Of a stretch of 56,672 nt of DNA, positions 2,746-30,384 are shown piece after piece. This DNA is from Eledone cirrhosa. Lineage: Eukaryota. Every line of letters starts with the position of its first letter. Within the stretch, counting starts at the first letter, position 1. The position numbers and the translations under genes were made by a program. A model generated the notes under the pieces. The model was given only the letters and a program-made list of their open reading frames with translations, had not been told where the DNA came from and ran no database searches. Location: positions 1 through 56,672 of the forward strand of contig CAXHJY010000003.1 of assembly GCA_964016885.1 (NCBI GenBank), given 5' to 3'.

Positions 2746-2805
<60 letters not shown>

Positions 2806-2838
2806 ATTAAATAAATGGAAAACTATATTTATAAAACC

Positions 2839-2915
2839 ATATTTATTTCATTATATATATTTCGGGGATATCATATTAACAATATGCTATGCCTTCATCA
2901 GACAAAATACAATAT
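2839..2915 (-). ncRNA. Type I hammerhead ribozyme motif (PLE A, sense-strand copy)
   Basis: Reverse complement of 6541-6617. Confidence 0.75.
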
Positions 2916-3280
2916 AAACAGTTTTATAGATAAATATATTCGACATACCGTAATAAACATCAACTTCATTTGAAGAGGTTCACTCTAGCAGTGAAAATAC
3001 AGAGAGAAAGAAAGAGAGAGAGAAAAGAGGGAAATAGGAAAGAAAGAAAGACAAAACGAAGAAAAGGAAGAAAAAGAAGAAAAAGAAAAAGAAGAAATGC
3101 ATGGGACAAAATAGAGAGATGGAAAAATAGATGAAGCGAAGAGCTTTCTGTAAAGAGACAGAAAGAGATATATATATATATAGAGAGAGAGAGGAAGTAG
3201 AGATAGATACATATATAAATATAGATATAGAAAAATTAGGTAGTGGGAGGTCATTTTGAGTAAGTGTATCAATGATGCAT

Positions 3281-3315
<35 letters not shown>

Positions 3316-4450
3316 GCTCAAGTATTAATGTAAGGGAGATATATAGAGAGATATAGAGAGATATAGAGAGAGAAAAAAATTTAAAAATAGCCAGACATAT
3401 TCGAGGCGTAGAAAGCCCTATGTTTTAATGTATTAGTATTTATAAAACTTACACTATATTGTAAATATCAGTATTCCTGAATGAAACAAGTATTCACAAT
3501 GCGTGAAAATTCATTATCTTATGTTTAGTTTTTTTAAAAAATTCATATGTCTATGTGAATCCAACTGATTCACTCCGCAAATTCAAAGTTACCGGAAAAC
3601 ATTCTCAATGTGGTATAAAAATTTGAGCGTATTATTATTCTTGCGATTACTTTACAAGATTATCTATCAAGCAGAAATAGAGAGCAGATTTCAATATACT
3701 AATCGAAAATATATATTATATTATATTATAAGCAGAGATAACAATAATAATGATAATAAGTAAAAATATATAAAAATATAAAAATATAGAATAGAAAACT
3801 AAAAAAAGAATATTACATAATAAAAATATTGCATATTAAAAATACTACGTATAAAAAATATTACGTATTAAAACTTTACATATAAAAATATTAAAAATAA
3901 AAATTTACATATAAAAATCTTAAAAATAAAAATAAAATAAAATAAAAAATAAAAATATTATAGAATACTACAATACTAAAAGAATAAAAATAAAAATAAA
4001 AATAAAAATAATAATAAAAATAAAAATAAAAATAAAAATAAAAATAAAAATGAAAATAAAAATAAACCACAAAGAACAACCCTTCAAAGTTAATTGACAA
4101 TATATTGCCAAGTTCACTACAAGACAAAGCCAAAAATTATCTATCAAATCACATCTAGCAAGGAATATCGCAAAAAAAGATTATGATGTCCAATAATGTC
4201 TACATATGTTCCTATATTTAATATATAAGTTTATCAAGTGTAAGGTTAATTCAAAAAATTTGGAGCATCGGCTTTTAGGGTAGCTTAATTTTTCATGAGG
4301 AATGTTTAGATAAAAAATAAAAATAAAAATAAAAATAAATAAAATAAAATAAAATAAACAATAAAAAGAGTAAAAAGAGGGAATCAAAGATTTAGGAATC
4401 AAAAGATTTATCGGCTAGTTCTCATATAAATATAAATCAAACTAAATATA

Positions 4451-4954
4451 CTACATTTTAAATTTAAATTTATATTTAAACGTTGAGTTTAATCTATGTT
4501 TGCAACAACTGAATAAATTTGTCCGTAGGTTAAGGGAATTTTTAGATTTTAGTATAAAGAATATCTCCTCTGCGCAGAGGTCACATGTCTCAGAGGATGA
4601 ATTAAAAGGAATCCCTCTTGAGACTATATTCCAAGCCGTCGAATATCTAACGTTATCTAGCTTAAGTTGCCAGAGTACACCTGATAGTGCCGTTGAAGAT
4701 TTTTTATTTGGATCTGTGAAAGAATTCTTGTGGTTATTATAGCGAAGTTTAAATTCCGTCGATGTGGAACCGACGTAGTTAAAAGAATTAGAGTCAGTAT
4801 TAACATTACAATTGTATACTATATTTTTAACTAAGCAGTTGTTATTTAACGGACATTTAGATCTATCTCTACAGTTACATTTGTTAACTTGTATATTATT
4901 TATGCTATTATCAGTAGGTTTTAAGTTCCTATTATTTCTTCTATTAATATTTTG
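4451..4954 (-). pseudogene. C-terminal GIY-YIG endonuclease fragment of Penelope-like element A (open frame, no Met, absent from the ORF track)
   Basis: Manual translation: KCNCRDRSKCPLNNNCLVKNIVYNCNVNTDSNSFNYVGSTSTEFKLRYNNHKNSF...AWNIVSRG...CDLCAEEIFFILKSKNSLNLRTNLFSCCKH...KM*. It is homologous to the C-terminus of ORF 12633..14993. Confidence 0.9.
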
Positions 4955-6148
4955 ATTAAACTCAACGTTTAAATATAAATTTAAATTTAAAATGTAGTAT
5001 ATTTAGTTTGATTTATATTTATATGAGAACTAGCCGATAAATCTTTTGATTCCTAAATCTTTGATTCCCTCTTTTACTCTTTTTATTGTTTATTTTATTT
5101 TATTTTATTTATTTTTATTTTTATTTTTATTTTTTTATCTAAACATTCCTCATGAAAAATTAAGCTACCCTAAAAGCCGATGCTCCAAATTTTTTGAATT
5201 AACCTTACACTTGATAAACTTATATATTAAATATAGGAACATATGTAGACATTATTGGACATCATAATCTTTTTTTGCGATATTCCTTGCTAGATGTGAT
5301 TTGATAGATAATTTTTGGCTTTGTCTTGTAGTGAACTTGGCAATATATTGTCAATTAACTTTGAAGGGTTGTTCTTTGTGTTTATTTTTATTTTCATTTT
5401 TATTTTTATTTTTATTTTTATTTTTATTTTTATTTTTATTATTATTTTTATTTTTATTTTTATTTTTATTCTTTTAGTATTGTAGTATTCTATAATATTT
5501 TTATTTTTTATTTTATTTTATTTTTATTTTAATATTTTTATATGTAAATTTTTATTTTTAATATTTTTATATGTAAAGTTTTAATACGTAATATTTTTTA
5601 TACGTAGTATTTTTAATATGCAATATTTTTATTATGTAATATTCTTTCGTAATATTCTTTTTTTAGTTTTCTATTCTATATTTTTATATTTTTATATATT
5701 TTTACTTATTATCATTATTATTGTTATCTCTGCTTATAATATAATATAATATATATTTTCGATTAGTATATTGAAATCTGCTCTCTATTTCTGCTTGATA
5801 GATAATCTTGTAAAGTAATCGCAAGAATAATAATACGCTCAAATTTTTATACCACATTGAGAATGTTTTCCGGTAACTTTGAATTTGCGGAGTGAATCAG
5901 TTGGATTCACATAGACATATGAATTTTTTAAAAAAACTAAACATAAGATTGAATTTTCACGCATTGTGAATACTTGTTTCATTCAGGAATACTGATATTT
6001 ACAATATAGTGTAAGTTTTATAAATACTAATACATTAAAACATAGGGCTTTCTACGCCTCGAATATGTCTGGCTATTTTTAAATTTTTTTTCTCTCTCTA
6101 TATCTCTCTATATCTCTCTATATATCTCCCTTACATTAATACTTGAGC

Positions 6149-6179
<31 letters not shown>

Positions 6180-6540
6180 ATGCATCATTGATACACTTAC
6201 TCAAAATGACCTCCCACTACCTAATTTTTCTATATCTATATTTATATATGTATCTATCTCTACTTCCTCTATATATATATATATATATCTCTTTCTGTCT
6301 CTTTACAGAAAGCTCTTCGCTTCATCTATTTTTCCATCTCTCTATTTTGTCCCATGCATTTCTTCTTTTTCTTTTTCTTCTTTTTCTTCCTTTTCTTCGT
6401 TTTGTCTTTCTTTCTTTCCTATTTCCCTCTTTTCTCTCTCTCTTTCTTTCTCTCTGTATTTTCACTGCTAGAGTGAACCTCTTCAAATGAAGTTGATGTT
6501 TATTACGGTATGTCGAATATATTTATCTATAAAACTGTTT

Positions 6541-6617
6541 ATATTGTATTTTGTCTGATGAAGGCATAGCATATTGTTAATATGATATCCCCGAAATATA
6601 TATAATGAAATAAATAT
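6541..6617 (+). ncRNA. Type I hammerhead ribozyme motif (PLE A, inverted arm)
   Basis: Stem I atattgtattttgt / atgaaataaatat; core CUGAUGA 6555-6561; stem II ggcatagcatatt-gtt-aatatgatatcc; GAAA 6593-6596; palindromic AU stem III; predicted cleavage after AUA at ~6604. Confidence 0.75.
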
Positions 6618-6742
6618 GGTTTTATAAATATAGTTTTCCATTTATTTAATATTGTAATATACTCCAAGTATTTGTCGAGTGCTTTTATATCAGTTATAAT
6701 ATTTACTAGTTGTAACCCAACAATGGTTTGATAGTACTGTAC

Positions 6743-11208
<4,466 letters not shown>

Positions 11209-12304: not shown

Positions 12305-12653
12305 CTTTTTTTGTTTAATATAAGGAACTGTTTCATTGTTTATTCATTATTTGTTTAATATTTTATCTTGACTCTGTATACCGTTTATCTTTCACCGAAA
12401 GTGATTTTTCATTACATCTCTTCTTTCCATGATATCCGGAATACATTGAGTTCTTCATACGGATTGGACACTACCGTAAACTCTTGGTAGATTTATCTAC
12501 ATAATTTTGCTCCTATTTTCACGGAAATATTCGTATTTTTGTACTGTATGTGTGTATTAATTTTATATTTATGTATATACATATATATGTATGATTTTAT
12601 AAACCCATATACATTTAGTTGAGCTCTTTCAATTGTCCATCATCCATATCACA

Positions 12654-14993
12654 ATGGAAAAACAATATTTGGGAACCTCTTTAAAAAACATACCAATACC
12701 TTCTAAGGATGACTTCTTACTCCTTATGATTCAAAAAACTAATAATTTTATCAGAAGGGTTAGATGGAGAGCCTACCACTTCGATAGAAAATCTAAACAA
12801 GCAGATCGGAAATATATGTATGATTTCAATACTTACAAGAATCCACCACACAACTTTTTACTTGAAGACTTCGAGAAAGACCTTTTTAATTTAATTAAAC
12901 ACCTCAAATTTAAAAAGTATAAATCCGTCTTTCAAAAGGACCTTGATTCTACCCTATTGGACCTAAAAAAGTCTAAAAAAATCCATGTCCACTCGGACAA
13001 AACTGGTAACTTGTATCATATGGATATTGAACATTATAATGAGTTCATATATAAAGAACTCAGAAAAAATTATAAAAAATCTAATAATGCGTCACTCACC
13101 AACATCAACAACAAAACACACAACATAGTAAAAAAACTAAACATTGAAGATAGAACTGAACCTTTGGCATTGAAAAGACCACACTTCAACCTGAAGGATC
13201 ATAAATCAAACTTTAACTCAAATCCTTCTATTAGACTTATATGTCCCTCCAAATCAGATATTGGAATAATTAGCAAAAAAATTTTGGATAGAGTCATCCC
13301 ACAAATAAGAAAACACGTTATTTTACCACTCTGGGAAAACACCTCCCAGGTAATTAACTGGTTTAAAAATATTAGATGTAAATCTTCTGCTTCATTTCTA
13401 CAATTTGATATAGATAATTACTATTCTTCTATATCACCTATACTCCTGAACAAAGCATTGATATTTGCTAAAAATAGATCTAACTTAACTTTGGATGACA
13501 TTAATATTATTACACATGCTAGACTAACACTTATTGAATTTCAGAATGAATACTGGACCAGAAACACATATAGTAATCTATTTGATATTACTATGGGTTC
13601 AAGCGATTCCGCCCAAATTACTGATCTTGTGGGCCTCTTTCTCCTTTTCAACATAAATGCCTCCTTTCCCCACCTCAAAGGTGGTTTATATCGTGATGAC
13701 TGTCTTCTTCTTTCTAACAACCTTAGCCTTTCAGAAATTGAAAAAAACAAAAAACATATTAGAACTTTCCTTAAAGACTATTATAATCTTAATATTACTT
13801 TTGAAAAAACAAGTAAAGTAGTAAATTTCCTAGATATAACTTTAGATTTAGCTACGGGTATCTACCAACCTTACCATAAACCAAACCAAAACTTACATTA
13901 CATACACTCACAATCTAATCACCCTAAATATATCCTTAAAAACCTTGCATATAATATATCACTTAGAATTTCTAACCTTTCTTCTAACCAAGATGTATTT
14001 GATAAAAATGCGACCTTCTATAACGAAGCTCTAGATAGAAGTGGCCACAAAAATAGATTAGAATATATACCTTCTACTAAAAATACTGAAAGCATACAAC
14101 CTAATATTACCAACAAACACCAAATGAAAAGTACACACCTAAATGCCACCCACACTATACCCCAAAATACCAAATCGTCTAATATAAAGTATAGTAACTC
14201 TCAAAAAACTACTCATCATACAACTCTAATAAATATTAATAATAAAACTCCTAATAAAAAGGATAAAACACCTAAATCTACAAATATAACTAAAAATGGT
14301 TGTGGTGAGATCATTAACATTAATCCTCCTAGTAAAAATCACGATACAACCTATAAAAATAATAAAAATAATAAACAACATAGAAACCGTAATAGACGGG
14401 TTACTTGGTATAATGCTCCATTTAATTTACAAATTAAGGATAATATTGCTAAAAAATTTGTTTATATCCTAGAGAAAAACTTCCCGCGAAACCACAAATA
14501 CCATCAAATCTTAAATAGGTCTACAGTTAAATTCTCATACTCTACAACAAATAACATAAAACAAAATATAAGTGCCTATAATGCATATAAATGTAAGAAA
14601 ACCATAAGTATACCACCAGTACATCAAATTAACCATAATATCTCCTCAAATACAGAATTAACGAAAGGTTGTAACTGTAGAAACAAAGCAAACTGCCCAT
14701 TAAAAGGGAATTGTCTTGTTAACAACATAGTCTATAAATGTAATGTTAAAACTAAAGATTCTATTTGCTCATATATAGGAGCTACCTCTAACAATTTTAA
14801 GACAAGGTTTAATACCCACAAGCATAGTTTTAAAAATGCCGCACTGGCTAAAACAACATCTCTAGCAGAAAAAATCAATAGTTATAAAAATAAGAATATA
14901 GAATATGATTTGACCTGGAGTGTGCTCAAAAGAGCCACCCCTTATCAAAATAATAGAAATGAATGTAGATTATGTTCCCAAGAAACTATTTGA
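12654..14993 (+). CDS. Penelope-like reverse transcriptase with C-terminal GIY-YIG endonuclease (ATG at 12654; probable 1-nt frameshift near 14983, homologous frame continuing to ~15096)
   Basis: Motifs SLKNIPIPS, SDKTGN, LKDHK..F...P..RLICP, QFDIDNYYSSI, FDITMGS, LYRDD, NFLDITLDL, YHKPN..YIH..SNHP, then CNC..CPL..CL..IVY..YIGATS..FKTRFNTHKHSF. Confidence 0.92.
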   Translation: MEKQYLGTSLKNIPIPSKDDFLLLMIQKTNNFIRRVRWRAYHFDRKSKQADRKYMYDFNTYKNPPHNFLLEDFEKDLFNLIKHLKFKKYKSVFQKDLDSTLLDLKKSKKIHVHSDKTGNLYHMDIEHYNEFIYKELRKNYKKSNNASLTNINNKTHNIVKKLNIEDRTEPLALKRPHFNLKDHKSNFNSNPSIRLICPSKSDIGIISKKILDRVIPQIRKHVILPLWENTSQVINWFKNIRCKSSASFLQFDIDNYYSSISPILLNKALIFAKNRSNLTLDDINIITHARLTLIEFQNEYWTRNTYSNLFDITMGSSDSAQITDLVGLFLLFNINASFPHLKGGLYRDDCLLLSNNLSLSEIEKNKKHIRTFLKDYYNLNITFEKTSKVVNFLDITLDLATGIYQPYHKPNQNLHYIHSQSNHPKYILKNLAYNISLRISNLSSNQDVFDKNATFYNEALDRSGHKNRLEYIPSTKNTESIQPNITNKHQMKSTHLNATHTIPQNTKSSNIKYSNSQKTTHHTTLININNKTPNKKDKTPKSTNITKNGCGEIININPPSKNHDTTYKNNKNNKQHRNRNRRVTWYNAPFNLQIKDNIAKKFVYILEKNFPRNHKYHQILNRSTVKFSYSTTNNIKQNISAYNAYKCKKTISIPPVHQINHNISSNTELTKGCNCRNKANCPLKGNCLVNNIVYKCNVKTKDSICSYIGATSNNFKTRFNTHKHSFKNAALAKTTSLAEKINSYKNKNIEYDLTWSVLKRATPYQNNRNECRLCSQETI

Positions 14994-18330: not shown

Positions 18331-18962
18331 TTCTTGATATATTTCTTTTTTCTTTTTTCTTTTTCTTTTCTTTCCTTTTTAATGTTTATTTATTATTTAT
18401 TATTTTTTATTTTCTTAGTTTATAGATACATCTATATTAAGCAGTCTGCCCAAACCGTTGAATACTGACCTCTCCCCCCCCCCTCCCACCTAATTTCTGT
18501 ATCTTGATCTAAATGTGTGTGCCAGTGTTTATGTGAGTGAATTAATATCCATGTGCTTAGGATTTTATATCCACATATATATATGTGAGTGGGGGGGTGT
18601 GTGTGTTTGTATGTTCGTAGTTATGTGTATGTTTATGCATATACGCGCGTGTGTGTGTGATTGTACGTATATGTGTGAGTATGAGAATATGTGTATACAC
18701 TTATTTCATATTTATGTGTCTATACGCATCTTATCTGTGCATTATAAACTTACAGAGACATTAACCTTGAAATTTTGTATTTGCATCCATCCTTTTGGTA
18801 TGCGTATACAAGTTGTGCATACATTTTTGTAAAATATGTGTAAGGGTAGTTACATGTATATACACACACCGAACTGCATTAAACCTTTTGTGTTTTCATT
18901 GGTCAATTTTGTTCCCAAACGGACCTGAAATTTTGAATTGTTGTTATTATCAATAAATATAT

Positions 18963-19116
18963 TTCATTATTTCTGAAGACGGCGTATATATGTGTTGGTA
19001 TGTATATTTAATCTTGATAGTTTGTATAATTTTGTATAATTTTGTACATAGATCTGTTGAATATGCATGCCAATTCTAACACATATATATCCTAGAAACG
19101 ATCGTTAAATAATGAA
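18963..19116 (+). ncRNA. Type I hammerhead ribozyme (PLE B, 3' pLTR)
   Basis: Same sequence as 12150-12304. Confidence 0.85.
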
Positions 19117-19168
19117 CTTTTTTGTTTAATATAAGGAACTGTTTCATTGTTTATTCATTATTTGTTTA

Positions 19169-19300
<132 letters not shown>

Positions 19301-19306
19301 TGTATA

Positions 19307-19750
19307 TACAATATTAAATAAATGGAAAACTATATTTATAAAACCATATTTATTTCATTATATATATTTCGGGGATATCATATTAACAATATGCTATGCC
19401 AAAGAAGAATGTATCACAAGTAGAGGCATAACAACGTATCGTAGAGTAATTCACGCGAAGAATAAACATTCATCCATTTTTTCAGTGTAAAAATGGATGA
19501 ATGTTTATTCTTCGCGTGAATTACTCTACGATACGTTGTTATGCCTCTACTTGTGATACATTCTTCTTTGGCATAGCATATTGTTAATATGATATCCCCG
19601 AAATATATATAATGAAATAAATATGGTTTTATAAATATAGTTTTCCATTTATTTAATATTGTAAATATACTCCAAATATTTGTCGAGTGCTTTTATATCA
19701 GTTATAAATATTTACTAGTTGTAACCCAACAATTTTAAATATAACTTTAC
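19307..19750. mobile_element. Fold-back derivative of the PLE A terminus: 175-bp inverted arms (19307-19481 / 19489-19663), 7-nt loop, ~85-nt extension
   Basis: The outer ~94 nt of each arm match 2800-2893 / 6563-6656. The inner 81 nt are unrelated to anything else seen. The extension resembles 6657-6724. Confidence 0.88.
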
Positions 19751-19761
19751 ATGTATATATG

Positions 19762-19839
<78 letters not shown>

Positions 19840-19893
19840 CATGTATATATATATATGTATATATATATATGTATATATATATATATGTATATA

Positions 19894-19940
<47 letters not shown>

Positions 19941-19990
19941 GTATATATATATATGTATATATATATATGTATATATATATATGTATATAT

Positions 19991-22071
19991 ATGGGAGAAA
20001 GACAGTCTCCCCCATATCGACCCGATAGAGGGACCAGCAGTGTTAGTCGAGGGGAGTATAATAAGTAAGGCAATCAAGGATATGAAGACTGGTAAGGCGG
20101 CTGGGCCTTCGGAAATAGTTGCTGAGATGCTGAAGGCATCTGGCACGGTGGGACACACCATGGTCACCCGCATAGTTAACCAAGTCGTACAGAATGGGGT
20201 TGTTCCGAAGGACTGGCATAGCAGCATCATCGTTAACTGTTATAAGGGTAAAGGAGACGCCCTAGATAGGAGTAACTATAGAGGCATTAAATTAATCGAC
20301 CAGGTCATGAAGGTCACGGAAAAAGTAATAGCGCAACTAATCAGAGAGAGAATTGATCTAGATGAAATGCAGTTCGGGTTTGTGTCAGGCAAAAGCACCA
20401 CAGACGCTCTTTTCATAGTACGACAACTACAGGAGAAGTACCTAGCTAAAGGTAAACCCCTCTACTTAGCTTTTGTCGACCTGGAGAAAGCCTTCGACAG
20501 AGTCCCCCGCTCCATTATCTGGTGGGCTCTTAGAAAACTAGGCGTTGACGAATGGCTTGTGAGGGCTATACAAACCATGTATAAAGAAACAGTCAGCAAG
20601 GTTAGAATTAACAACGAATATAGTGAAGAGTTTAGCGTAAAAGTTGGCGTCCATCAGGGCTCTGTTCTCAGCCCCCTACTATTTATTATTGCCCTTCAGG
20701 CTATAACAGAGGAGTTCAAGACAGGCTGCCCATGGGAACTCCTATACGCAGACGACCTGACACTCATAGCGGAATCAATGGCCGAGCTAGAGAAGAAATT
20801 CCAAACATGGAAGCACGGCCTAGAGTCAAAAGGACTTAAAATTAACCTGGCTAAGACCAAAGTTCTAGTTTGTAGGAAAGAAAACAAGGCGGCGGTCCCT
20901 TCTGGGAAATGGTCGTGCTCGGTATGTAGGAAAGGCGTAGGTAGAAACTCCATCTTATGTCCTAAATGCAAAGTATGGGTGCATAAAAGATGTAGTGGGA
21001 TCACAGGTAAGCTAACTAAGAACATAGACTTTACATGTGGCCGGTGTTCTGGTGCAATAAGTAGAAGCAAGTGCCCACAAAATACTAGCTCTTTCAATTG
21101 CGCAGAGGGTTCTATAGAAATAGTGGACAGCTTCCGTTACCTGGGCGATAAAATCAGCAGTGGGGGAGGGTGCTCTGAAAGTACTGTAGCTAGAGTCAGA
21201 ACTGGTTGGAAAAAGTTCAGAGAGCTTATACCACTATTAGCTGCTAAAGGGTTCTCCCTAAAAATGAAAGGCAGGTTGTACGATGCCTGCATACGAACAG
21301 CAATGTTGCATGGTAGTGAGACCTGGGCATTGTGTGCAGAGGATATACGCAGACTAGAGAGGAACGAAGCTTGCATGCTCCGCTGGATGTGTAACAGTAA
21401 TATACGTGAACGGCAAAGCATAAACGAACTAAGGAAAAAATTAGAGATAAGAGGGATCAGATGTTGTTTACTCGAGAGAAGGCTGCGTTGGTATGGACAC
21501 GTGATGCGCATGAAAGTCGATAGCTGTATTACAAAGTGCAGGGCAATAAAGATAGACGGTAGCCACGGAATAGGCAGACCTAGAAAAACATGGGATGAGC
21601 TGATAAACTCCGACCTCACACACTTACACCTCTCCAAGACAATGTCACTGGACCGTGACCTTTGGCGGTACTCAGTAACAGAGAAGACCCGCCTTGCCAG
21701 TAGGCATCTCTAACAAACTACACCCCGTCCCGCCACCACCCCCACCCCATCCACACCACCCCGTTCCATGTAAAGTTATGTTGGTGCCGCGCCATCCAGG
21801 CCGAAACAAACGAGATCGTGTAGGTGTCATGACAAAAAAACACACAGTCCACGCTGTAATGTGGCCGTGTAGGCAACACGGTAAAAACCTCCCAGATCCA
21901 CACTGTAAATGTGGTTGGTGTTAGGAAGGGCATCCAACTGTAGAAAACCTGCCAGACAGTCCTATGCGAGCAAGACAATCACTCTTGCCTCAAGTGGGAC
22001 TACCCCCGTCCAAACCCATGCAAGCGTGGAACACGGACGTTAAACGTTGATGATGATGATGATGATGATGA
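19991..22071 (+). mobile_element. 5'-truncated RTE-clade LINE, copy 1 (RT plus PHD-like Cys/His finger; stop 21713; (TGA)n tail)
   Basis: [65 protein letters not shown]; tail taaacgttgatgatgatg; embedded in (TA)n. Confidence 0.92.
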
Positions 22072-23734: not shown

Positions 23735-23741
<7 letters not shown>

Positions 23742-23820
23742 GATAAGCAGAACAAGTAAAATTCAATCAATTTTTCAAAATACATTAAAAAATATAATAT
23801 AAATATTTACCTCTTCTAGT

Positions 23821-23903
23821 GGCCCTTACTGATCAGTTTCGCTTTGTAAAACCTCATAAATCCGATGGATTCATGATGGAAAACCAAAGCTCATCAGAGA
23901 AGC
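23821..23903 (-). ncRNA. Type I hammerhead ribozyme (retrozyme, inverted copy)
   Basis: Reverse complement of 24581-24663. Confidence 0.85.
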
Positions 23904-24580
23904 ATTTTCCCATCCTAGGGCTAAACGTCCCAGGAACGACAAAATATACAACCTCCTGCCAGCTAATAAAGGTCTGAAAGGTCGTAAAAGTGACCCGTAT
24001 GTAAACTGGACCGAAGTAAAAGCGGGAAAATCAAAGACTTGCTGTCTACAATTACTACTAAAGAAATAGCAGCCTAGTAAAGCAACAGATTTGTTCTCAA
24101 CGGACGGAGAAAAAGGTATAAGTTAATATGTCCAGGGATACTAGGTACCCCTAGAAATACATAGGTTGTCTATGATTCAGGGTTGTTCAATGGTGTTAAT
24201 TTGATATTTTTTAATGTATTTTGAAAAATTGATTGAATTTTACTTGTTCTGCTTATCTTAATATTAAAGTTCTGGTGTATCAAATTAACACCATTGAACA
24301 ACCCTGAATCATAGACAACCTATGTATTTCTAGGGGTACCTAGTATCCCTGGACATATTAACTTATACCTTTTTCTCCGTCCGTTGAGAACAAATCTGTT
24401 GCTTTACTAGGCTGCTATTTCTTTAGTAGTAATTGTAGACAGCAAGTCTTTGATTTTCCCGCTTTTACTTCGGTCCAGTTTACATACGGGTCACTTTTAC
24501 GACCTTTCAGACCTTTATTAGCTGGCAGGAGGTTGTATATTTTGTCGTTCCTGGGACGTTTAGCCCTAGGATGGGAAAAT

Positions 24581-24663
24581 GCTTCTCTGATGAGCTTTGG
24601 TTTTCCATCATGAATCCATCGGATTTATGAGGTTTTACAAAGCGAAACTGATCAGTAAGGGCC
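24581..24663 (+). ncRNA. Type I hammerhead ribozyme (retrozyme monomer 1)
   Basis: CUGAUGA 24587-24593; stem II gctttg...caaagc with inner tcatgaatcc / ggatttatga; GAAA 24644-24647; palindromic stem III ACUGAUCAGU; predicted cleavage after GUA at 24657; stem I is short and GU-rich. Confidence 0.88.
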
Positions 24664-25065
24664 ACTAGAAGAGGTAAATATTTATATTATATTTTTTAAT
24701 GTATTTTGAAAAATTGATTGAATTTTACTTGTTCTGCTTATCTTAATATTAAAGTTCTGGTGTATCAAATTAACACCATTGAACAACCCTGAATCATAGA
24801 CAACCTATGTATTTCTAGGGGTACCTAGTATCCCTGGACATATTAACTTATACCTTTTTCTCCGTCCGTTGAGAACAAATCTGTTGCTTTACTAGGCTGC
24901 TATTTCTTTAGTAGTAATTGTAGACAGCAAGTCTTTGATTTTCCCGCTTTTACTTCGGTCCAGTTTACATACGGGTCACTTTTACGACCTTTCAGACCTT
25001 TATTAGCTGGCAGGAGGTTGTATATTTTGTCGTTCCTGGGACGTTTAGCCCTAGGATGGGAAAAT

Positions 25066-25148
25066 GCTTCTCTGATGAGCTTTGGTTTTCCATCATGAAT
25101 CCATCGGATTTATGAGGTTTTACAAAGCGAAACTGATCAGTAAGGGCC
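25066..25148 (+). ncRNA. Type I hammerhead ribozyme (retrozyme monomer 2)
   Basis: Identical motif 485 nt downstream; predicted cleavage after 25142. Confidence 0.88.
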
Positions 25149-25209
25149 ACTAGAAGAGGTAAATATTTATATTATATTTTTTAATTATATATATATATAT
25201 ATACATATG

Positions 25210-25669: not shown

Positions 25670-28443
25670 TTGTAAACACTAAATCCCTCCCCCATGAAGA
25701 ATGCACCTCCCAACATAGACTGATAATTAGCGACCTCATAGTCAGGACGAGACGTACTCGACAGCAGAAGAGGACTATCCTCAGGAGAAAAATATGGAAG
25801 CTAAAGGACCCCACAGCCAGGAATAAATTTCAAAGCATATTACTTGATGCTTTCGACAGTAAGGAAGAACATTTAGAGTCGGACAATATAGAGGGAGAGT
25901 GGGAATTTCTGAAAGCAAACCTGCTGTTGGCGACAGACGAAGTCTGTGGCTGGAGCAGGCCTGTAGGCAGGAGGAGAGTAACATGGTGGTGGAACAGTAA
26001 GGTGGAGGGGTCAATTAAGGCCAAAAAGCAGGCTTGGAAAGTATGGCGGGATGGGGGAAGTAGAGAAGACTATCAAGTGGCCAGGAGGGAAGCCAGGAGA
26101 CAAGTGTACTTAGCAAGAAGGGAAGCTGAGGAAAGAAAGTTCAAGCATGTTCTACAACGCGATGACCAAAAACGTGAGGTGTTCAGGATTGCTAGGCAAT
26201 GCGTCAAGGAAAACCGTGATATTGTCGGGGAGAAGTGTGTACTAAACGACGATGGCACACTTGCCATCACCGACGCTGATAAGAAGGTAGCTTGGAAGTG
26301 TCACTATGAAAGGCTACTAAATGAGGAGAATAAATGGGAGAAAGACAGTCTCCCCCATATCGACCCAATAGAGGGACCAGCAGTGTTAGTCGAGGGGAGT
26401 ATAATAAGTAAGGCAATCAAGGATATGAAGACGGGTAAGGCGGCTGGGCCTTCAGAAATAGTTGCTGAGATGCTGAAGACATCTGGCACGGTGGGACACA
26501 CCATGGTCACCCGCATAGTTAACCAAGTCGTACAGAATGGGGTTGTTCCGAAGGACTGGCATAGCAGCATCATCGTTAACTGTTATAAGGGTAAAGGAGA
26601 CGCCCTAGATAGGAGTAACTATAGAGGCATTAAATTAATCGACCAGGTCATGAAGGTCACGGAAAAAGTAACAGCGCAACTAATCAGAGAGAGAATTGAC
26701 CTAGATGAAATGCAGTTCGGGTTTGTGTCAGGCAAAAGTACCACAGACGCTCTTTTCATAGTACGACAACTACAGGAGAAGTACGTAGCTAAAGGTAAAC
26801 CCCTATACTTAGCTTTTGTCGACTTGGAGAAAGCCTTCGACAGAGTCTCCCGCTCCATTATCTGGTGGGCTCTTAGAAAACTAGGCGTTGACGAATGGCT
26901 TGTGAGGGCTATACAAGCCATGTATAAAGAAACAGTCAGCAAGGTTAGAATTAACAACGAATATAGTGAAGAGTTTAGCGTAAAAGTTGGCGTCCATCAG
27001 GGCTCTGTTCTCAGCCCACTACTATTTATTATTGCCCTTCAGGCTATAACAGAGGAGTTCAAGACAGGCTGCCCATGGGAACTCCTATACGCAGACGACC
27101 TGACACTCATAGCGGAATCAATGGCCGAGCTAGAGAAGAAATTCCAAACATGGAAGCACGGCCTAGAGTCAAAAGGACTTAAAATTAACCTGGCTAAGAC
27201 CAAAGTACTAGTTTGTAGGAAAGAAAACAAGGCGGCGGTCCCTTCTGGGAAATGGTCGTGCTCGGTGTGTAGGAAAGGCGTAGGTAGAAACTCCATTTTA
27301 TGTCCTAAATGCAAAGTATGGGAGAATAAAAGATGTAGTGGGATCACAGGTAAGCTAACTAAGAACATAGATTTTACATGTGGCCGGTGTTCTGGTGCAA
27401 TAAGTAGCAGCAAGTGCCCACAAAATACTAGCTCTTTCAATTGCGCAGAGGGTTCTATAGAAATAGTGGACAGCTTCCGTTACCTGGGCGATAAAATCAG
27501 CAGTGGGGGAGGGTGCTCTGAAAGTACTGTAGCTAGAGTCAGAACTGGTTGGAAAAAGTTCAGAGAGCTTATACCACTATTAGCTGCTAAAGGGTTCTCC
27601 CTAAAAATGAAAGGCAGGTTGTACGATGCCTGCATACGAACAGCAATGCTGCATGGCAGTGAGACCTGGGCATTGTGTGCAGAGGATATACGCAGACTAG
27701 AGAGGAACGAAGCTTGCATGCTCCGCTGGATGTGTAACAGTAATATACGTGAACGGCAAAGCATAAACGAACTAAGGAAAAAATTAGAGATAAGAGGGAT
27801 CAGATGTTGTTTACTCGAGAGAAGGCTACGTTGGTATGGACACGTGATGCGCATGAAAGTCGATAGCTGTATAACAAAGTGCAGGGCAATAAAGATAGAC
27901 GGTAGTCACGGAATAGGCAGACCTAGAAAAACCTGGGACGAGCTGATAAACTCCGACATCACACACTTACACCTCTCCAAGACAATGTCACTGGACCGAG
28001 ACCTTTGGCGGTACTCAGTAACAGAGAAGACCCGCCTTACCTAAATATATAGTAAAACCTACTCCAGCCAGTAGGCATCTCTAACAAAATACACCCCGTC
28101 CCACCACCACCACCCCCACCCCATCCACACCACCCCGTTCTATGTAAAGTTATGTTGGTGCCGCGCCATCGAGGCCTAAACAAATGAGATCGTGTAGGTG
28201 TCACGACAAAAAAACACACAGTCCACGCTGTAATGTGGCCGTGTAGGCAACACGGTAAAAACCTCCCAGATCCACACTGTAAATGTGGTTGGTGTTAGGA
28301 AGGGCATCCAACTGTAGAAAACCTGCCAGACAGTCCTATGCGAGCAAGACAATCACTCTTGCCGCAAGTGGGACTACCCCCGTCCAAACCCATGCAAGCG
28401 TGGAACACGGACGTTAAACGTTGATGATGATGATGATGATGAT
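25670..28443 (+). mobile_element. 5'-truncated RTE-clade LINE, copy 2 (end of APE domain, linker, RT, PHD-like finger; open frame to stop 28044; (TGA)n tail)
   Basis: Non-repeat part of ORF 25207..28044 (SQHRLII..., [18 protein letters not shown]); nearly identical to copy 1 from 26334 onward. Confidence 0.93.
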
Positions 28444-28860: not shown

Positions 28861-29408
28861 TGGTGGCTGCCAACTCGTTTTCGAGTACGGCCACTACTTT
28901 ATATCCATGTAGGAGAACCCCTACCGATGCGCTGAACGAGTTTGACTTTTTAGTCCAGCCAGCGACTTGAAAACTCTGGTACAAACACTACACTTGTGAC
29001 AATTATTGACACATAGTGCTGGGTCCATGGTACCATGTGACGACAAGTGCAGAGAGATCTCCAGATGTAAAGCAATGCCTGTGTTGTGAAGCTTTTATAG
29101 TGAGCAAAGGCACTGCACAAAGCCAGTCCCACTCTCTTAACTAAGATGATATTTACCAAAAAGAAGAACAAGTCAACATCATTGGATACCATCAGAGTTG
29201 CAGGTGTTATATCAGAGTTTTCCTTCTCCTAGAATTCTGCCTTGACAAAGGCTAAGGGGTCATCTCTCCCGGTGATTTTGGATGGCCATTGACTCTTAAG
29301 AGCTCCTTTGACAGGTTTTGTTTTTAGTCCTGCAGGATGTCCAAAGTCACCCTCCTCACCAAGAAACCTTGGTGGGGTTGCCAGTTTAGTCGCCAGCAAC
29401 CCAACCAT
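28861..29408 (-). mobile_element. Non-autonomous RTE-derived SINE-like element (~550 bp), copy 1
   Basis: Reverse-complement match to 29821-30384 and direct match to 38895-39408; ends in cgagttggcagccacca followed by microsatellite. Confidence 0.8.
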
Positions 29409-29549
29409 GTATATGTATATATATATATATACATATGTATGTATGTATATATATATATATATACATATGTATGTATGTATATATATATATATATACATAT
29501 GTATGTATGTATATATATATATATATATATATATTCATATATACATATG

Positions 29550-29594
<45 letters not shown>

Positions 29595-29595
29595 G

Positions 29596-29636
<41 letters not shown>

Positions 29637-29637
29637 G

Positions 29638-29680
<43 letters not shown>

Positions 29681-29820
29681 GTATGTATATATATATATAT
29701 ATATATACATATGTATGTATGTATATTTATATATATATATGTATGTATATATATATATATACATATATACATATGTATGTATGTATATTTATATATATAT
29801 ATGTATGTAAGTATATATAT

Positions 29821-30382
29821 AACCTGTCTCATGGTCGGCTCGTTGGTGACTAAACTGGCAACCCCACCAAGGTTTCTTGGTGAGGAGGGTGACTTTGGAC
29901 ATCCTGCAGGACTAAAAACAAAACCTGTTAAAGGGCAAAGGAGCTCTTAAGTGTCAATGGCCATCCAAAATCACCGGGAGAGATGACCCCTTAGCCTTTG
30001 TCAAGGCAGAATTCTAGGAGAAGGAAAACTCTGATATAACACCTGCAACCCTGATGGTATCCAATGATGTTGAATTGTTCTTCTTTTTGGTAAATATCAT
30101 CTTGGTTAAGAGAGTGGGTCTGGCTTTGTGCAGTGCCTTTGCTCACTATAAAAGCTTCACGGCACAGGCATTGCTTTATATCTGGAGATCTCTATGCACT
30201 TGTTGTCACATGGTACCATGGGCCCAGCACTATTTGTCAGTAATTGTCACAAGTGTAGTGTTTGTACTAGAGTTTTCAAGTCGCTGGCTGGACTAAAAAG
30301 TCACACTCGTTCAGCGCATCGGTAGGGGTTTTCCTACATGGATATAAAGTAGTGGCCATACTCGAAAACGAGTTGGCAGCCA

Positions 30383-30384
<2 letters not shown>
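29821..30384 (+). mobile_element. Non-autonomous RTE-derived SINE-like element, copy 2
   Basis: The 3' part encodes a C2H2 remnant, [25 protein letters not shown], like RTE/BovB ORF C-termini. Confidence 0.8.

Follow-up and report, generated by a model that had tools for sequence, protein, structure and literature searches.

Two host exons joined to a PLE terminal repeat in a perfect hairpin of Eledone cirrhosa

The hairpin and its surroundings

We analysed a stretch of 56,672 nt from Eledone cirrhosa (hereafter the window), which at 19307-19752 carries a short insertion with two arms, 19307-19481 and 19489-19663, that are exact reverse complements over 175 bp around a loop of 7 nt (19482-19488; Table 1). 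A sequence-only reading had judged the arms perfect by eye and expected a long perfect stem upon transcription; both points hold, with a predicted stem of 175 bp (fold z = -45 against 100 shuffles). The outer ~94 nt had been attributed to the end of the family PLE A, including hammerhead stem II and GAAA, and we confirmed 93 nt of each arm as PLE A terminal repeat from stem II onward, matching the repeat at 6563 onward. The CUGAUGA core and the 5' stem I are present at 6555 and missing from the hairpin, in agreement with the loss of the ribozyme core noticed earlier. Inside the repeat each arm has 82 further nucleotides, and the right arm extends past 19663 with a PLE A tail of 89 nt, to about 19752. 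Runs of (TA)n adjoin the hairpin on both sides, and the copy lacks an ORF as well as the PLE start or promoter region.

Table 1. Features of the hairpin and of the neighbouring PLE copies (window coordinates)
Feature	Position	Strand	Remark
Ordinary head-to-head PLE A insertion	2804..6744	.	intact hammerhead core (6555)
PLE B sense terminal repeat	18551..19174	+	ends ~130 bp from the hairpin
(TA)n run, left part of the insertion target	19175..19306	.	from sequence; (TA)n is the target used by the family
PLE A terminal repeat, tail-less arm	19307..19399	-	93 nt, hammerhead stem II to the family's short end
Host exon B, antisense	19400..19444	-	45 nt, identical to G000:C297:64976-65020
Host exon A, antisense	19445..19488	-	44 nt, with the 7-nt loop 19482-19488
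Host exon A, last 37 nt, sense	19489..19525	+	first 4 A's fit either arm (0-4 nt microhomology)
Host exon B, sense	19526..19570	+	45 nt
PLE A terminal repeat	19571..19663	+	from just past the AG after the CUGAUGA core; stem II, GAAA and 3' stem I only
PLE A tail, to the family's long end	19664..19752	+	89 nt; boundary with the TA run uncertain by a few bases
(TA)n run, right part of the target	19753..19992	.	followed by a 5'-truncated LINE

The surroundings are rich in other elements. The segment 11214-19174 is probably a whole insertion, with inverted repeat, of a second Hydra-like family, PLE B, which shares 45% identity with PLE A in the RT part; its ORF (12603-14993) stops before the last motif and is followed by a long 3' region and then the repeat, where a hammerhead-like core lies at 18973. 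Two LINE copies with RT (19993-22069 and 26336-28443) are 96.8% identical, the first also scoring for a PHD finger. Near-perfect inverted and tandem repeats of 420-550 bp at 23739-25185 and 28862-30383 are perhaps the ends of other PLE families.

PLE A is abundant: an exact 26-mer of its repeat has 6,103 arm matches in the genome, and a 40-mer with the hammerhead core has 2,946 exact matches. An intact copy (L083) consists of a repeat, an ORF of 738 aa and a second repeat in a unit of 4,119 bp. Its protein has no Pfam match; the motifs found (RWR 38, DKT 119, YRDD 353, CxCX5C 597, YVG 631, CxxC 695 and CxH 722) correspond to the RT, C-terminal GIY-YIG, DKT, RWK-like motif, CxCX5C linker, CxxC and CxH of a published description (PMC8557442), and by the fit of motifs to that description PLE A would be of the Hydra type. 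Many PLE A ORFs (L081, L084, L086, L087, L090, L110 and L111) break at the same C-run (a proline run) before the endonuclease, which may reflect slippage or sequencing error. The complete hammerhead core is a PLE A trait that is replaced in the hairpin copy. The window has no Rfam match, and the intact hammerhead, folded as a single strand, does not rise above shuffles (z 0.72), so that the ribozyme is called from its motif layout at 6555.

PLEs are known for inverted repeats with a one-sided tail (available text of PMC8557442). Among 58 head-to-head PLE A pairs (fetched loci plus the window, part from the first 100 listed matches and part chosen for odd junctions), 54, the hairpin included, combine a tail-less with a tailed arm, and 4 fell outside the motif test. 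The shape of the hairpin is thus an ordinary product of PLE A insertion, and the fold-back is not peculiar to this copy; many PLE A members would also form a stem if transcribed, and the hairpin is special for its 82-bp host part. PLE A inserts in (TA)n, as the hairpin does, with both of its ends at the family's fixed ends, and 21 of the 81 long arms fetched (duplicates not removed) match the long arm of the hairpin exactly. We read the hairpin as one young PLE insertion. The window's own PLE A copy at 2804..6744 was rejected as its source, having 3 differences in 164 nt and a different tail end.

Host exons and the two internal joints

The inner part had been described as an unrelated sequence of 81 nt replacing the core and the 5' stem I. 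The replacement is confirmed, but it measures 82 nt per arm and consists of two host exons: a genome search with 19401-19488 found matches only in the window and on contig C297, there in two parts. Exon B is preceded on C297 by a T-rich tract with AG (TTTTAG) and followed by GTGAGT, and exon A belongs to a 2-kb unit repeated five times in tandem (C297:28.4-36.5 kb), with GTAAGT after every copy of the exon. Both exons lie on the same strand, A before B and at least 28.5 kb apart. Their joint in the window runs exactly from donor to acceptor with zero slide, the intron of 28.5 kb or longer being gone. For comparison, C297 has GTRAGT at 84 of 256,633 positions, and exon B was among the 9 rows that a blind search for exon-like segments returned for its + strand. 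From the splice-site flanks, the order and the exact joint, we conclude that the inner part is a piece of spliced RNA.

In a base-by-base comparison with four of the C297 copies, exon A of the hairpin is 43/44 identical to each, and both arms have a C where all five assembled copies have a G. This shared private base indicates a single template and a donor allele that differs from the assembled one, and the private exons serve as a barcode by which both arms are assigned to one RNA species. Contigs from the sequencing runs X1 and X3 cover 19489 to ~19525 with no C-to-G row, an absence that by itself proves nothing, and the C may be a natural allele. The exon A piece stops at an initiator-like site of the donor, which in terms of sequence would be an RNA 5' end, and the host piece as a whole resembles a 5' leader. 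Scanning C297 for ORFs and exons yielded no name for the host gene and, among the matches listed, no convincing exon after B. On the donor contig, exon A and its surroundings form a 2-kb tandem array of five copies with 96-99% identity, a repeated first-exon region (G000:C297:26286-37050; L009, L010), and a 63-bp palindromic remnant of a PLE B end lies at G000:C297:89047-89109 (L017).

At the other joint, the last base of exon B is followed by PLE sequence from directly past the AG that comes after CUGAUGA. This joint has a 2-nt GG microhomology and slides 1 nt either way, which gives three registers, one of them GT/AG. The AG is the sole one in the 72 nt before the joint, and in the parent element it closes a 56-nt GTATGT...AG segment of the 5' leader, 228 nt before the ATG of the intact 738-aa copy. 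AAG is a less common splice acceptor. We found no spliced PLE A copy among the 6,103 arm matches, having read the 27 filter matches that would catch one; this speaks against natural use of the hammerhead AG, which may be a cryptic acceptor. In the accessible parts of the literature, Penelope is described with an intron in its 5' leader (PMC8557442), and the intron of D. virilis Penelope ends at its hammerhead (PMC4209133).

The chimeric junction, whose copies we counted genome-wide, matches only the two arms of the hairpin and hence one locus. The idea that the inner sequence is part of a PLE A subfamily was rejected on this count, the inner sequence being otherwise confined to C297, and so was a non-autonomous PLE subfamily or retrozyme, for which many copies are expected. 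Filters for host-exon fusions at the same AG returned 27 and 23 matches, 44 of them distinct, and all were read: 2 are the hairpin arms, 41 look like PLE-internal joints, indels or point changes and 1 (L126) is unassigned, with the filters passing over fusions that end in PLE-like bases and copies with changes in the 26-mer. L126:555-680 (G000:C2:184008754-184008879) is a single PLE A arm that follows 23-34 unassigned bases and a piece of another repeat; these bases matched no second locus over their length, and a second capture is possible. Such an exon-fusion screen is easily repeated in any PLE-rich genome. Breakpoints do not accumulate at the joint, which is no hotspot: 25 other non-consensus matches end there versus 26 at a site 37 nt upstream, a rough control in which the two filters differ and the control loci were counted without being read.

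Origin of the chimera and of its two arms

As both internal joints are splice joints, a host transcript that had been spliced into a PLE terminal repeat is the most likely template. Our preferred reading, to which we give a probability of roughly 0.78, is that this was a PLE A repeat further downstream in the host gene and that the PLE enzyme copied the spliced transcript and inserted it. After the joining of exons A and B, the donor of exon B would have been spliced to the AG just past the hammerhead core, by which the core was removed. The PLE A protein would then have bound this RNA in trans, nicked both (TA)n strands and primed one cDNA at the tail end and another at the short end. One cDNA may have reached the 5' end of the RNA and the other ended about 7 nt short of it, and the two would then have been joined head to head through 0-4 nt of A/T microhomology and filled in to give the inverted repeat. 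In the available text of PMC11167929, a PLE protein in vitro nicks both strands of the target and extends them, uses two start sites that flank the tail and does not need hammerhead cleavage. C297 carries no PLE A in all of its 128,316 bases, including the 63 kb from exon B to the contig end, and we found no contig overlapping that end; the source copy may lie beyond it or on another haplotype.

The sequence-only reading had proposed either an RT template switch or the capture of another RNA or locus. Capture of another RNA stands, but the switch is weakened by the position of both joints on canonical splice sites. It would require that the PLE enzyme left the PLE RNA at stem II for the spliced host RNA, or for a free 5'-exon intermediate ending at exon B, and we consider this improbable. 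The GG microhomology, the missing PLE copy in the 63 kb after exon B and the breaks of other copies' arms at this site all speak for a jump, and a free 5' exon would end precisely at the donor. However, the jump must hit both the host donor and the site past the AG (~3 in 45-82 times about 1 in 20, which we put at a few per thousand), breakpoints do not cluster at the site, and the same jump is needed in both arms unless one was copied from the other. Very improbable, in our view, is trans-splicing, in which the gene would lack a PLE copy and the host donor would have used the AG of an independent, abundant PLE A transcript: it accounts for both splice joints and the missing cis copy, and PLE A is very abundant, but trans-splicing of this type is rare, and a cis copy may yet exist, since C297 is unplaced, 128 kb long, ends 63 kb after exon B and shows no convincing next exon.

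The way in which the arms were doubled is a separate matter, on which the smaller members of the family bear. In PLE A it is common to find mini-hairpins whose two AG sites are separated by about 190 nt (e.g., L026, L038, L051 and L096), and arms of such mini-hairpins that stop at TCACT retain the putative 56-nt intron. In a set of 23 rows, reduced to 22 unselected mini-hairpins by dropping one short-short pair, the arm that extends further is the tail-less one in 9 and the tailed one in another 9, and the two are equal in 4; 30 of 44 arms end at the initiator-like site TCACT, 94-101 nt above the AG, and overlaps of 0-9 nt are seen in 20/23 rows. This pattern fits two cDNAs that copy an unspliced sense leader up to its 5' end and then join, and the ownership of the loop by either arm (9:9:4 of 22) fits two joined cDNAs better than one fold-back. 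The inverted repeat could instead have arisen when a single cDNA of the same spliced template snapped back. One copying event explains at once the private C common to both arms, a 6-nt palindrome at the pile-up site in one subfamily could serve as primer, and self-priming is proposed in the available part of PMC3846280. Against this, the loop of the hairpin continues exon A in antisense on the tail-less arm, and that strand's snap-back could not template the 89-nt tail; across the family the loop is owned by either arm equally, and a later asymmetric deletion at the hairpin centre would be needed. We regard a single snapping cDNA as unlikely.

An assembly artefact is the least probable of the explanations considered. 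The window is an unplaced contig of 56.7 kb (C30), and long TA runs flank the hairpin. Among the listed assembled contigs (from runs X1, X3, X4 and X5) placed on 19482-19752, where PLE matches swamp the search, no piece bridges either hairpin joint and none covers 19532-19541, so that the locus rests on the assembly; the sequencing runs listed include no RNA, and the placed contigs are of DNA or of unspecified kind. These data neither support nor contradict the hairpin. Palindromic reads and misjoins, however, do not make unequal arm ends specific to the family, and an exon-exon joint together with a private base missing from the assembled donor is unlike their products.

On our preferred reading, host-spliced RNA copied by a PLE, the hairpin tells us that splicing does not bar such copying. 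PLEs keep their introns when moving, and the available text of PMC3846280 leaves open whether the template is antisense or unspliced sense RNA; here the host intron was removed in the sense direction of the PLE, which indicates a sense template. The hairpin is also a genomic case in which the hammerhead core is dispensable in cis, in agreement with the in vitro result as given in the accessible part of PMC11167929. As it stands, the locus is probably inert and a one-off. Transcription from the sense PLE B repeat ~130 bp upstream could possibly read through into the hairpin. More speculatively, and in our estimate quite doubtful, PLEs may trap exons through the hammerhead acceptor, the removal of the intron switching the ribozyme off; head-to-head insertion would turn the products into hairpins, and dsRNA from PLE B read-through would silence the donor gene by way of its 82-bp host part. 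If this were true, transposition would have a one-step route to a gene-specific RNAi locus, and PLE templates would be sense Pol II transcripts.

Comparison with known systems

The closest parallel is exon trapping by SVA elements, namely human SVA_F1 with MAST2 exon 1 and chimpanzee pt_SVA_D6 with STK40 exon 1 (available text of PMC6139936). As described there, one or more host 5' exons are spliced to an acceptor within the retroelement, the 5' part of the element is replaced and the fused RNA is retrotransposed; the recognition mark is a host piece that ends at the 3' end of the exon. The hairpin shows several features of such an exon-trapped retrocopy: its host piece ends at the donor, introns are absent and the PLE starts past the AG. 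As far as the same text goes, SVA differs in being moved by LINE-1 and in forming subfamilies of 84 and 94 copies, whereas the hairpin is a PLE product at one locus and is doubled head to head, with the host exons in a perfect stem.

A literature search of partial coverage, supplements excluded, found no report of exon trapping or of spliced retrocopies by PLEs, and the retrozyme preprint 10.64898/2026.07.22.740005, in its accessible part, has no bearing on splicing into PLEs. PLE A resembles the EN+ PLEs of the Hydra clade in its DKT and CxCX5C motifs (PMC8557442) and, by the available text of that source, in the inverted terminal repeats, the tail on one arm, the hammerhead in the repeat and the (TA)n target. 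It differs from their description in a tail of 89 nt rather than 30-40 and a unit of 4.1 kb rather than under 3 kb, and the hairpin copy further in having neither ORF nor hammerhead core.

In Adineta vaga, Pen3a-NRPS is likewise a host sequence moved in trans with PLE terminal repeats, but according to the accessible part of PMC3846280 the gene retained all of its introns and is bounded by whole repeats, whereas the hairpin has lost the host intron and its host exons run directly into the repeat. Pxyfem of Plutella xylostella is similar as a partial cDNA of a host mRNA lodged among transposons; in the available text of PMC9674220 it is multicopy with small RNAs shown, in contrast to the one locus of the hairpin. 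Set beside these systems, the hairpin is most likely a case of a known mechanism, exon trapping, in a new class of elements.
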